From a virus (lineage: Duplodnaviria > Caudoviricetes): DNA of 64,000 nt. Location of the stretch: the IMG/VR virus record IMGVR_UViG_3300035208_003026, positions 144,981 to 208,980 of that record; one strand, given 5' to 3'. This document shows, one piece after another, positions 58,139 through 62,359 of this stretch. Position 1 is the stretch's first letter. Every line of letters begins with the position of its first letter. The position numbers were made by a program, and so were the translations under genes. The notes below the pieces were generated by a model, which saw only the letters and a program-made list of their open reading frames with translations, was not told the DNA's origin and did no database searches.

Positions 58139-58332
58139 TTGAACAAGCAAGAGGAAATGGATTTTTTACTGTCGCTGTTGACACGGAGAATGGTAAATTC
58201 GTAAACATCTTATGCCAGCTATCTGGAAAGATGAGAACCAATAACATTAAAGTTGTCAGTGGTGACAAGGTTGATGTTGAACTCGATCCTTACGACATGC
58301 AAAAGGGTCGTATTATTTATAGGAAACGATAA
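58102..58332 (+). CDS. infA: Translation initiation factor IF-1
   Basis: GIVEQ..GNGFFTV...LSGKMRTNNIKVVSGDKVDVELDPYD..KGRIIYR. Confidence 0.93.
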   Translation: MPSDDKPKFTGIVEQARGNGFFTVAVDTENGKFVNILCQLSGKMRTNNIKVVSGDKVDVELDPYDMQKGRIIYRKR

Positions 58333-58505
58333 TGAAAATTAAAAGAGAAGTTGAGATTGAAACTGTTCAAGCTTTAAAGCTTGAAGATGGTAAGTTATTT
58401 ATCATTACAAAACACTTAAGTAATGGAGATGTTGTATCGTTTAGTAACACATCTGTTCAATTAGAAAGTGTTCTTAAACTTCTAAAAGATGAAGGGATTA
58501 TTTAA
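58332..58505 (+). CDS. Small hypothetical protein (57 aa)
   Basis: Manual ORF; TAATG overlaps at both ends. Confidence 0.6.
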   Translation: MKIKREVEIETVQALKLEDGKLFIITKHLSNGDVVSFSNTSVQLESVLKLLKDEGII

Positions 58506-59002
58506 TGAAGCAGCCAAGTGATCATGCACCTAAGGGTCTATTAAAATACACTACGGGAGACGCAACACTACCAAACGGTAGCTCCCTGCGTTACATCCTA
58601 CAGATTGTTAACGATGCTGGTAAGTATGGGGCTGGTTTTAGTGGAGCTTTAAGTGCTCGTTGGCCCAAGGTTGAAACCGAATACAGAGCTTGGTGGCGCG
58701 CACGATATGGCAAGCTGAGCCTTGGTGATATTCAGGTTATTCAGGTTCTTAGCGATCTTTGTGTTATCAACATGGTTGCTCAGCACGATGTTGTATCCAA
58801 GGATAATCCAAAGCCTATTGACTATAAAGCTCTTCAGATGTGTTTAGCGAAAGCTGGTGTCGAAGTCTCGCAGTACAATGCTAGCATTCATATTCCGCGT
58901 ATTGGTTGCGGATCTCAAGGTTCCTGGGACGATATTGAACCCCTGATTGATCAGGAACTTCTCAAACGTGGTATCAATGTAACTGTTTATGATCAGGAAT
59001 AA
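58505..59002 (+). CDS. Macrodomain ADP-ribosylhydrolase (TARG1/DarG-like)
   Basis: GDAT, VNDAGKYGAGF, INMVAQ, HIPRIGCG, W..IE..I. Confidence 0.85.
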   Translation: MKQPSDHAPKGLLKYTTGDATLPNGSSLRYILQIVNDAGKYGAGFSGALSARWPKVETEYRAWWRARYGKLSLGDIQVIQVLSDLCVINMVAQHDVVSKDNPKPIDYKALQMCLAKAGVEVSQYNASIHIPRIGCGSQGSWDDIEPLIDQELLKRGINVTVYDQE

Positions 59003-59010
59003 GGCATTAA

Positions 59011-59331
59011 GTGGGTTTTAGAAAGTTTGCGGAGATAGCTGGATTCGACATCTATAGAAATCTTACCAAGAAAGAAGTTAAGCTTTTCCGTAAGTTTCTA
59101 AAGAAGAGGCTTTGTACTCATGGGTCTTGGGCTCAACCTTGGTTTTCTGAGGCTCAGCGTCTAAACCGTAAAGCTAGATACACTACAATCTCACAGATTG
59201 AACGTATTCAGTTTTTACATTCCTTATCAAAGAATTTACAGCCATGGCAATTTCAGCTGAGCGCGCTTCTCGTGCACTTTGTCCTCGACGAACCTAGTCA
59301 CTGTGGTCCTTACCCAAGAGGGTCAATCTAG
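59011..59331 (+). CDS. Hypothetical basic protein
   Basis: 106 aa, GTG start. Confidence 0.5.
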   Translation: MGFRKFAEIAGFDIYRNLTKKEVKLFRKFLKKRLCTHGSWAQPWFSEAQRLNRKARYTTISQIERIQFLHSLSKNLQPWQFQLSALLVHFVLDEPSHCGPYPRGSI

Positions 59332-59334
59332 CCT

Positions 59335-59436
59335 ATGAGAGATTATCAAAGCATTGCAAGGCGTTTGTTTCAGATTGATTCCTTGCCATCTGGGGCTGAA
59401 CCGGTTTACTGCACCGAGATAGATGTAAATGTATGA
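59335..59436 (+). CDS. 33-aa peptide resembling a major-capsid N-proximal segment
   Basis: MRDYQSIARRLFQIDSLPSGAEPVYCTEIDVNV*; GAGG upstream; ATGA overlap with next gene; absent from ORF track. Confidence 0.6.
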   Translation: MRDYQSIARRLFQIDSLPSGAEPVYCTEIDVNV

Positions 59437-61328
59437 AGACAATTCTTGTTACTGGAGCTGCTGGTTTTATCGGCTCTCATCTTTGTGATCGGTTGTTGTT
59501 TGAGGGACACAAAGTCATTGGTATTGATAATATGATGACTGGGTCTCTTGAAAACCTTCAGCAAGCTAAAAAGAATCCGAACTTCCATTTTGAGATTCAT
59601 GATGTTCGTGAACCTCTTAATGTATACTCGGATGTTATCTTCAACCTTGCTTGTCCAGCATCACCAATACACTACCAGAAGAGTCCTATTGATACGTTCA
59701 CAACATCAGTGATGGGTGTACATCAACTGATTAAGGCTACACAAAATCGCAAGTGTACAATCATACATACATCTACATCTGAGGTGTATGGTGATCCTCA
59801 AGTCCATCCTCAAGTTGAAAGCTATTGGGGTAATGTAAACCCAATAGGTCCAAGGTCTTGTTATGATTCTAAAACGGAAATCTTAACAGATGTTGGTTGG
59901 GTGTATCTAAAAGATATAATCACCACAAAGCAATGTAAAATTGCTACAAGAACATCAATTGGTAATGTTGAATTTCATAATCCGTTAGAAATAATTCATG
60001 ACAGATATGTTGGTAGCATGTATCATCTTAGTAATAATAAGATGGATGTTATGATAACTCCAAATCATAATATTTGCATTGCTGATAGGTTTGGTAAAAA
60101 TGAAAAGATTGTTGCTGTTAATTCTGTAACAGATTGGTATCACTCAAAAATTCCAGTATCAGCTAATTTTGAATCTGATGATGTTGAATATTTCAAATTA
60201 CCATCAATTGATGGGTGTAGGGTTACACATTCTGATTTAAAAATGGATGACTGGATTGAATTTCTTGGATGGTATTTATCTGAGGGATCTGTATATTATC
60301 CAGATTACACTGTTTTGATATCTCAAACAAAAAAGGATAATCGCGAGATTATATCTTCTTGTTTGAAACGATTAGGATTTAAGTTCTTTGTTGAAAAAGC
60401 ACAGTTTAGAATATGTAATAAGCAACTTTATAGTTTTCTTTTACCTCTAGGAAAATCTGGAGACAAGTATATTCCAAGACAGTTTTTTACCGTATCAAAA
60501 AGACAATTAAACATACTTCTAAAGGCAATGGTTTTAGGAGATGGTACCAATAATACAAAAAGTACAGGATTTCGTTATTATTCAAAATCAGAACGTCTTG
60601 CAAATGATTTTCAGGAATTAGCTTTACGTTGTGGTTTTGCTAGTACAAAATCAAAACCAAGCCAAGGTCGTAGTGTTTACAGTGTTAATGTAAGGAACTA
60701 TAAATATACATCTGGTATTAGACCAAATGTAATTAATTATGATGGTTATGTTCACTGTGTCAATGTTCCTAACCATGTTGTTTGTGTTAGGAGAAATGGA
60801 AAGTCAATTTGGTGCGGTAATTGCTACGACGAAGGAAAACGTGGCGCAGAGACTCTTCTAAATGATGCTCGCCGAGTTCACGGAATGGACACCCGAATAG
60901 TTAGATTGTTTAACGTATACGGACCGAGGATGTCTTTCGATGATGGTAGGGTTGTATCTAACTTTATCATTCAAAAGCTCAGAAACGAACCCATAACAGT
61001 TTGTGGAACAGGCACTCAGACAAGATCTTTCTGTTACGTATCTGATCTTATCGATGCTTTGATGAAGGTTTTGGAACTACCATCTTTGGATGGTCCTATT
61101 AATCTTGGGAACCCTAAAGAGTACACAATCTTGGAAATGGTTCAAAAACTAGAACAAGTTCTTGGTAAATCTGAGTTGAAGTTTATTGATCTTCCAATAG
61201 ATGATCCTAAAATGCGTCAGCCAGATATCTCCAGAGCACGAGAGCTTCTAAATTGGGAACCTACAGTTTCATTGGAAGATGGTTTATTAATGACTGCCCA
61301 TGATTTCCAAAACCGTCTTAGGAGCTAA
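59433..61328 (+). CDS. UDP-glucuronate decarboxylase (UDP-xylose synthase) with intein
   Basis: GAAGFIGSHL, LACPASP, STSEVYGDP, YWGNVNPIGPRS|CYDEGKR, DGRVVSNF, TRSFCYV, DDPKMRQPDI. Confidence 0.93.
   Translation: MKTILVTGAAGFIGSHLCDRLLFEGHKVIGIDNMMTGSLENLQQAKKNPNFHFEIHDVREPLNVYSDVIFNLACPASPIHYQKSPIDTFTTSVMGVHQLIKATQNRKCTIIHTSTSEVYGDPQVHPQVESYWGNVNPIGPRSCYDSKTEILTDVGWVYLKDIITTKQCKIATRTSIGNVEFHNPLEIIHDRYVGSMYHLSNNKMDVMITPNHNICIADRFGKNEKIVAVNSVTDWYHSKIPVSANFESDDVEYFKLPSIDGCRVTHSDLKMDDWIEFLGWYLSEGSVYYPDYTVLISQTKKDNREIISSCLKRLGFKFFVEKAQFRICNKQLYSFLLPLGKSGDKYIPRQFFTVSKRQLNILLKAMVLGDGTNNTKSTGFRYYSKSERLANDFQELALRCGFASTKSKPSQGRSVYSVNVRNYKYTSGIRPNVINYDGYVHCVNVPNHVVCVRRNGKSIWCGNCYDEGKRGAETLLNDARRVHGMDTRIVRLFNVYGPRMSFDDGRVVSNFIIQKLRNEPITVCGTGTQTRSFCYVSDLIDALMKVLELPSLDGPINLGNPKEYTILEMVQKLEQVLGKSELKFIDLPIDDPKMRQPDISRARELLNWEPTVSLEDGLLMTAHDFQNRLRS
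59859..60821 (+). mobile_element. Intein (321 aa) with LAGLIDADG endonuclease in the UXS gene
   Basis: PRS|CYDSKTEILT..TPNH..LGWYLSEG..MVLGDG..VRRNGKSIWCGN|CYDEG. Confidence 0.93.
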
Positions 61329-61584: not shown

Positions 61585-61609
61585 AAGTTTGCTGGTATAT
61601 CTCTAAGAT

Positions 61610-62359
61610 ATGGTAGGAAGAGATGTAATCATTTCTGCGCTTGCTTGTGGTGGGAAGATGTCCTGTCGCAAGCAAGCGGCTGAGTTTGAAAATCCCCCGG
61701 TTGTAATCAATATCAATAGTTCCAATGGTATTACAACTGGTGGTGGAACTGTTGATGGCTTTAGAAAAGCTGCGGCAGAGTATAAGAAGCAAGGGAACGG
61801 TTCTATCATTCAGGGTGTTCTTAATACCCAGAAGATTTCACAGCCTAATCGTATAGCCCTTGTATCATACTTAGATGGTTGGAGTTTCGTGAATGAAGTT
61901 GTCAAATCTGATGACTTTACACGTATAGATACCGTTATTGTTTTCGAAGGATTAAACACCAAAAGTGCAAGACTATTTCAGCAATGGGAAGCTTTTGCTG
62001 ATAAGAAAAAGCTTGTGCTAGTGTATTCTCAGATGTCTCATAAGACAGCGTCATCCAAGAGTGCGTGCTCAAAAATTGTGACTCCATTTACAAATGAGAA
62101 AGAGCTGGAGTTACCAGATTATATAAAAGACCCACTGTGGGAAAAGAGTATTTCTATATATTCAAAAACAGAAATACTTAAAACAAAGATTTATCACACT
62201 GATACTTTGGTAAATTCATGGTATTCTAAGTCAATAATGGCTCTTGAATATTCGGGTAAGCAGTCCCAGGACCAGACCTACATTCAGCAATACGTTCAGC
62301 CAAGAATTTGGAAATGGCTGAGAGAACAGTGGAAGGACCCTACTACTGGTTGTGTATGA
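61610..62359 (+). CDS. Hypothetical alpha/beta protein
   Basis: 249 aa; RIALVSYLDGW weakly resembles a hydrolase elbow. Confidence 0.6.
   Translation: MVGRDVIISALACGGKMSCRKQAAEFENPPVVININSSNGITTGGGTVDGFRKAAAEYKKQGNGSIIQGVLNTQKISQPNRIALVSYLDGWSFVNEVVKSDDFTRIDTVIVFEGLNTKSARLFQQWEAFADKKKLVLVYSQMSHKTASSKSACSKIVTPFTNEKELELPDYIKDPLWEKSISIYSKTEILKTKIYHTDTLVNSWYSKSIMALEYSGKQSQDQTYIQQYVQPRIWKWLREQWKDPTTGCV

Follow-up and report, generated by a model that had tools for sequence, protein, structure and literature searches.

A 33-codon capsid-like reading frame in an uncultured giant phage is very probably the 3' remnant of a broken accessory gene

Results

Organization of the locus

The window analysed here is a stretch of 64,000 nucleotides that comprises bases 144981-208980 of a 208,980-bp IMG/VR virus record, which is about 49% complete according to CheckV. 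Its source is an uncultured giant phage with a GC content of about 38% and nearly all of its genes on the + strand. The major capsid protein (MCP) encoded by this genome is of the Bacillus phage G gp27 type. The MCP of a close relative matches chain A of PDB 6WKK with an E-value of 4e-94, and metagenomes hold hundreds of MCPs of about 336 residues that are 84-97% identical, some of them on contigs of 420-470 kb.

The feature under study is a frame of 33 codons, opened by the ATG at 59335, which we refer to as the mini-ORF (Table 1). A preliminary description of this DNA, made from the sequence alone, had reported its peptide as the product of an unannotated ORF that exactly fills the gap between two genes and is equipped with an SD-like GAGG and ATGA coupling. 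Most of this layout was confirmed, and the frame encodes precisely the peptide reported. The upstream ORF ends at 59331, which leaves a gap of 3 nt to the ATG of the mini-ORF, the TGA at 59434-59436 overlaps the ATG at 59433 of a downstream gene of 631 codons, and the JGI gene calls on an identical contig (L010) omit the ORF. The SD-like GAGG is indeed present (59318-59321), yet 13 nt separate it from the ATG, which is a poor distance given that nearly all of the 85 long ORFs with such a core in the same genome space it at 4-11 nt, with a mode of 4-6 nt. What the preliminary description missed is that the upstream 106-codon ORF and the mini-ORF share one frame and that only a TAG and a CCT stand between them. 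A promoter and terminator scan of the locus returned nothing above shuffled sequences except a weak 5-bp hairpin where the patch described below begins.

Several neighbouring genes could be assigned. The downstream gene, identified by Pfam as a UDP-glucuronate decarboxylase, contains an intein of about 320 residues with a LAGLIDADG_3 domain, inserted between ...G-P-R-S and C-Y-D-E-G-K-R and absent from the enzymes of the seven closest relatives (311-352 aa). Just 5' of the broken gene lie two genes that are conserved in the relatives' loci, one for an IF-1/eIF-1A-like protein of 76 aa (58102-58332; Pfam E 7.5e-19) and one for a weakly recognizable macro-domain protein (58505-59002; PHROG 'phosphatase', 2e-19).

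Table 1. Features of the broken gene, its downstream neighbour and the genome's capsid gene (positions in the window unless stated otherwise)
Feature	Position	Strand	Remarks
5' part of the broken gene, 106 codons	59011..59331	+	GTG start (ATG in relatives); codons 1-83 correspond to the family N domain
Replacement patch, 81 nt	59260..59340	+	Replaces 36 nt of the relatives (T-Q-S-M-V-x-P-I-R-R-S-L)
In-frame TAG	59329..59331	+	Splits the ancestral frame (single-frame translation of 59011-59436)
Mini-ORF, 33 codons	59335..59436	+	Probable leftover 3' end of the broken gene; its TGA and the next ATG overlap (ATGA)
Retained MCP-like segment	59341..59433	+	D-Y-Q-S-I-A-R-R ... E-I-D-V-N-V; MCP profile positions 80-109
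Downstream gene, UDP-glucuronate decarboxylase (SDR/epimerase family)	59433..61328	+	Pfam; LAGLIDADG intein inside; translationally coupled
Real MCP gene	genome C1:77755-79931 (locus L003:113-2292)		Two pieces around an insert

The mini-ORF matches the N-terminal part of the major capsid protein

The capsid likeness noted in the preliminary description holds. When the 209-kb genome was cut into 7,907 six-frame segments and all of them were compared with a profile HMM built from 115 MCPs, four matched clearly, namely the two pieces of the real MCP, a segment of an ORF at 48698-49216 and the mini-ORF, which scored 30.8 bits (E=5.7e-8) over MCP positions 79-109. The short-query check that had been proposed points the same way: in a tblastn search of the 33-residue peptide against 50,697 phage records, the best three independent matches, at E-values of about 1e-2, were Bacillus phage G gp27, Tunturiibacter phage Tunturi_5 and an unannotated record of an uncultured 485-kb phage. 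The matches to the major head proteins of phage G and Tunturi_5 fall at the same place of the MCP, and identity to residues 39-66 of gp27 is 50%. Of the residues invariant in the MCP family, the peptide has D-Y-Q, R-R, D, L-P, Y and I-D-V. An exhaustive phmmer search of 1.84 billion proteins returned a single match below 1e-3, a bacterial cadherin/Ig-repeat protein of 2209 aa, which we regard as spurious, since it repeats the decamer F-R-I-D-S-L-P-S-G-A about ten times.

The source family of the copied segment is that of phage G gp27 (PDB 6WKK; Pfam PF25209, Phage_capsid_4). Judged by its position in the sequence, the segment precedes the spine helix and probably runs from the N-arm to the start of the E-loop, in line with the placement first suggested for it. 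A complete MCP fold of the phage G type consists of an N-arm, an E-loop, a P-domain with the spine helix and an A-domain, in about 280-340 residues. The mini-ORF aligns over only about 31 of 336 MCP positions and does not comprise a complete MCP fold; it is too short and cannot form an HK97 fold.

Two further capsid-like stretches were seen in the same genome. The ORF at 48698-49216 (+, 172 aa) is a second MCP-fragment gene: its residues ~26-97 copy MCP positions 268-321 (HMM E 5.7e-14; PHROG 'major head protein', 2.7e-9; tblastn to phage G gp27, 1e-7) and the rest of the protein is without a match. A weaker stretch at genome C1:140926-141114 (+), which lies immediately behind the stop codon that ends a 1007-codon ORF of the same frame, resembles MCP positions 153-179 in the spine-helix region (10.5 bits, E 0.083) and may be due to chance.

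Relatives carry a single gene with a capsid-derived tail

Searches with the 106-residue upstream product returned only two protein clusters, one consisting of the window's own protein, which is also found on the identical 14-kb JGI contig L010, and the other of a 126-residue protein on a 515-bp ENA contig (L011). In L011 both parts lie in one ORF, which runs ...S-P-I-R-R-S-L-D-Y-Q-S-I-A-R-R-L-F-Q-I-D-S-L-P... and ends in a stop that overlaps the start of the same downstream gene. Further relatives were fetched with the N-terminal part of the downstream gene as an anchor. The uninterrupted gene encodes 126 aa in L011 and L015, 124 aa in L016 and L017 and 111 aa in L018, whereas contig L019 starts inside the gene, so that its 5' end is truncated, and has an intact tail. 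Together these six contigs place a single gene of 111-126 aa in five lineages, and the gene tables of two more contigs, available as tables rather than DNA, list genes of 129 aa and 111 aa at the same place. The gene lies directly 5' of the decarboxylase gene in all relatives seen, and every intact copy with readable DNA (L011, L015, L016, L017 and L018) shows the stop/start overlap. Because these relatives carry both parts fused, we take the single uninterrupted gene to be the common state.

The protein family, which is previously undescribed, combines two parts. Its N-terminal domain looks helical and is marked by the motif L-T-K-K-E-V-K ... H-G-S-W-A ... W-F-S-E-A ... R-L-N, which is present in the window at 59011-59259; searches of Pfam and PHROGs with the N-terminal ~80 residues gave no match, and hhalign detected no homology of this domain to the MCP N-terminus. 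The last ~46 residues copy MCP positions 63-109 (...P-I-R-R-x-L-D-Y-Q-x-I-A-R...Y...I-D...), with an hhalign probability of 97.8%, an E-value of 1.2e-12 and 49% identity. Searched with the MCP profile, most intact relatives score 44-46 bits and the more diverged L018 scores 30 bits. The tail retains the MCP invariants P-I-R-R, L-D-Y, R-R, D, L, Y and I-D, which amounts to about half of the MCP-invariant residues. At the DNA level it is only about 54% identical to the MCP gene and, for this reason, the copy must be old.

Both halves of the intact gene are under purifying selection. Between L015 and L016 (pS ~0.6), pN/pS is 0.29 in the N domain and 0.26 in the tail, and between L011 and L015 the corresponding values are 0.09 and 0.13, so that we take this to be a real gene with a capsid-like tail that matters. 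Given this selection and the retained invariant residues, capsid-protein mimicry by the 111-126-aa family is plausible. Structure prediction gave models too poor for use: AlphaFold2 reached a pLDDT of 50.7 for the small family (3 sequences), with a tail below 50, and of 35.6 for the MCP (27 close sequences), and a predicted complex of MCP residues 44-336 with family residues 78-126 scored 0.02, below the mark. A likeness of the 126-aa protein to retrotransposon gag and caulimovirus coat proteins among ESM Atlas features (0.92) was dismissed as chance, as few features (93-115 of 256) were shared.

The gene is interrupted in the lineage of the window

Nucleotide identity between the window and L015 is 91-98% up to 59259, drops to 36% inside the replacement patch, an isolated island between flanks of 93-98%, and is back at 93% from 59345; the retained MCP-like segment as a whole is 85-93% identical to the tail of the intact L015 gene. 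The patch is 45 nt (15 codons) longer than the DNA that it replaces and keeps the frame, and it contains both the TAG and the ATG of the mini-ORF. The upstream ORF, too, owes its final 23 codons and its stop to the patch. Lost from the gene is the stretch Q-x-M-x-x-P-I-R-R-x-L, while D-Y-Q to the end is retained, so that of the family signature P-I-R-R/Q-x-L-D/E-Y-Q the window has only the portion from D-Y-Q onward, and the one uninterrupted frame seen in the relatives is closed by the TAG. Neither the 209-kb genome nor the fetched loci contained a source of the patch, and exact-pattern scans of viral and metagenome contigs, with the patch (its stop codon left free) and with conserved tail DNA, gave no match. 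Since L010 is identical to the window over the whole region, the patch and its stop are not an assembly error.

The N domain of the window differs from those of its relatives at positions that are conserved in all of them (L3F, E4R, E42Q and P73S). Against L011 it shows 8 non-synonymous and 4 synonymous differences, a ratio of 0.52 compared with the 0.09 of the sister pair, albeit on small counts. For the tail, pN/pS between the window and L011 is 0.15 and the lone substitution unique to the window introduces a Cys, with counts too small to decide.

A further broken form was found in L012, L013 and L014, which come from three samples and carry the same gene as a pseudogene with three shared in-frame stops and a small deletion. 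As the gene is broken in the window and L010 and independently dead in L012-L014, it has been lost repeatedly. In these three loci (L012:3001-3120, also L013 and L014) the 352-aa decarboxylase (P0127) has an N-terminal extension of 40 residues that is a gene-calling artefact, the 40 codons being read through another frame of the dead capsid-tail gene.

The surrounding DNA, at about 59405-59470 and 61600-62330, is of mosaic ancestry. As far as the mini-ORF reaches, and the patch excepted, identity to L015 is 87-98%; it is 65-76% through the decarboxylase gene and 87% after 62323. The closest relative of the decarboxylase gene is L012 and not L015, and the ORF at 61610-62359 occurs in L016 and is missing from L012 and L015.

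Discussion

The comparison with relatives leads us to a reading of the mini-ORF that differs from the one originally put forward. The preliminary description had proposed a free capsid-mimic peptide as the cleanest member of a set of decoys, and had named conservation of the micro-ORF as a check. The micro-ORF as such is not conserved, and a peptide gene that is free-standing by design is not supported: the same residues form the C-terminal tail of a 111-126-aa protein in five lineages, and a separate ORF exists only in the window and the identical L010, whereas the gene is fused in the five lineages and dead in one. In our view, the mini-ORF is very probably what remains of the 3' end of a small accessory gene. 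The ancestor would have possessed one gene of 111-126 codons that overlapped the start of the decarboxylase gene and carried the copy of MCP positions 63-109 as its tail. In the lineage of the window, 36 nt in the middle of this copy were swapped for 81 nt of foreign or filler DNA that kept the frame and brought in the TAG, one codon and then the ATG, and the outcome is a 106-codon 5' ORF followed by a 33-codon 3' ORF with the ATGA overlap of the ancestral gene at its end. The close fit of the mini-ORF to the gap and its ATGA coupling are accounted for in this way, because it inherited the end of an older, longer gene. To judge from the change of the start codon from ATG to GTG and from the replacements in the N domain, the locus in the window is most likely an early-stage pseudogene. 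Since the tail of the intact protein preserves MCP-invariant residues, the most economical view is that it would engage a partner of the corresponding MCP segment, which could be an adjacent subunit in the capsid, an assembly factor or a sensor on the host side.

Some features of the locus run counter to its being a mere remnant. The patch preserves the frame (+45 nt) and holds a single stop, the ATG follows one codon after that stop in an arrangement that could serve as a two-cistron split gene, and the tail shows no clear relaxation against L011, although counts are small. If the 5' ORF is translated, ribosomes that end at the TAG could restart at the ATG 3 nt further on and yield a candidate peptide of 33 residues. 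Termination-reinitiation is established for bacterial operons, and the short distance between stop and start would favour it. Such a functional split gene would release a peptide that mimics or decoys the MCP segment and could, for instance, titrate a host sensor or an assembly partner; the peptide retains the MCP-invariant residues listed above and has changed little in the window specifically. There is also a precedent for activity of so short a piece, as the 29-residue Gol peptide from T4 gp23 is active alone in exclusion by Lit/EF-Tu (PMC3014915), and several defence systems sense capsid proteins (PMC9712102, PMC11312562). Nevertheless, we consider a functional split gene unlikely, given that the stand-alone ORF is limited to the window and L010, that the P-I-R-R-x-L kept by every intact relative is missing from it, that its SD spacing is poor and that L012-L014 do without the gene. 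It is highly improbable that read-through or suppression of the TAG instead yields a family protein of 141 residues with a linker longer by 15 residues, in which case the mini-ORF would never be a separate product. A patch whose length is a multiple of three and which holds a single stop would suit such read-through, yet by calculation about 60% of random 27-codon stretches would hold one stop or none, which makes the open frame of the patch unremarkable. Among the long + strand ORFs of the 209-kb genome, 67 end with TAA, 46 with TGA and 18 with TAG; with 18 such ORFs, TAG counts here as a regular stop codon, and frames interrupted by TAG were not in excess. As for a suppressor, no tRNA genes were found in the 209 kb searched (~49% of the genome by CheckV), and in view of stop usage and this lack of tRNA genes we reject TAG recoding.

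The origin of the patch may be considered separately from its effect. The real MCP gene of this genome is interrupted exactly at P-I-R|R-N-L, after ...A-N-P-I-R, by an insert of ~1.17 kb that encodes a 305-aa LAGLIDADG_2 endonuclease with HTH domains. Its junctions fit a group I intron, with a U before the 5' site and a G before the 3' site, and joining of the exons restores P-I-R-R-N-L-D-Y as in the uninterrupted MCPs of relatives; an Rfam search for group I introns was negative both for the insert and for the surroundings of the mini-ORF. The 12 codons replaced by the patch are homologous to this insertion site, and the endonuclease insert is present in the MCP gene of this genome and in none of the three relatives' MCP genes seen. 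The patch could accordingly be a repair scar, left after the homing endonuclease from the MCP gene cut the homologous site in the small gene and the target was removed, and such a scar would be compatible with the remnant reading. We regard this origin as improbable. Only ~13 of 24 central positions match between the homing site in the MCP gene and the small-gene site of the closest relative, the identity of 53-60% over 30 nt is no higher than in the rest of the segment, and a patch of 12 codons placed at random would be expected to hit the site in about 10% of cases. A different origin, in which the patch would be the border of a co-conversion tract left by homing of the decarboxylase intein, was ruled out, because identity to L015 is back at 93% right after the patch and falls only near the start of the decarboxylase gene.

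With the mini-ORF read as the end of a broken accessory gene, the closest parallels come from phage T4. T4 alt.-1/alt.-2, as far as the RefSeq annotation describes them, go back to an old, partial duplicate of the beginning of alt that has acquired a stop codon, and are alike in that a gene fragment has been split into two small ORFs by an internal stop. The T4 fragment, however, adjoins its parent gene and derives from an ADP-ribosyltransferase, whereas the MCP piece in the window lies ~125 kb away from the gene for the MCP and, until it was split off, formed the tail of a composite protein. T4 gp61.1, an uncharacterised protein of 54 aa, copies residues 57-93 of T4 gp23 (BLASTP 46% identity, E 6e-9) and resembles the family described here in being small and accessory, in reproducing part of the MCP of the same phage and in being encoded far from the head genes. 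It is unlike it in that the gp23 family is not of the phage G type, that the copied segment lies just before the Gol region and that gp61.1 is an intact stand-alone ORF. Gol itself, 29 residues from the most conserved N-terminal part of gp23, is a precedent for a capsid peptide that matters to host defence, but it belongs to a real MCP and triggers defence rather than blocking it. An hhalign comparison of the MCP family with T4 gp23 found no relation (Prob 0.14) by which the present motif could be placed against the Gol region.

We found no description of phage capsid-fragment decoys in the literature. A more far-reaching proposal would be that the 111-126-aa family is a selected capsid-arm mimic that occupies a host capsid sensor or an assembly factor, that the split allele of the window still delivers an active 33-residue peptide by reinitiation and that, together with the ORF at 48698-49216 and T4 gp61.1, the family carries an undescribed class of capsid-fragment proteins beyond T4-like phages and into an MCP lineage unrelated to theirs; taken as a whole, we find this quite unlikely.

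The present case demonstrates that a micro-ORF that looks designed, with its close fit to a gap, an SD-like motif and an ATGA overlap, can be the leftover end of a broken gene, and it was the comparison with relatives that settled the origin of the mini-ORF. It also reveals that a clade of uncultured giant phages keeps a copy of an N-terminal MCP segment in a small protein family, under purifying selection and always coupled to the gene of a sugar-nucleotide enzyme. A lineage of the phage G type now stands beside the T4-type case of gp61.1, which suggests that capsid-fragment proteins have originated repeatedly. Nature has supplied two knock-outs of the gene, one shared by the window and L010 and one by L012-L014, which show that it is dispensable in some settings, as would be expected for an accessory or arms-race function, and provide ready comparators for the intact form.
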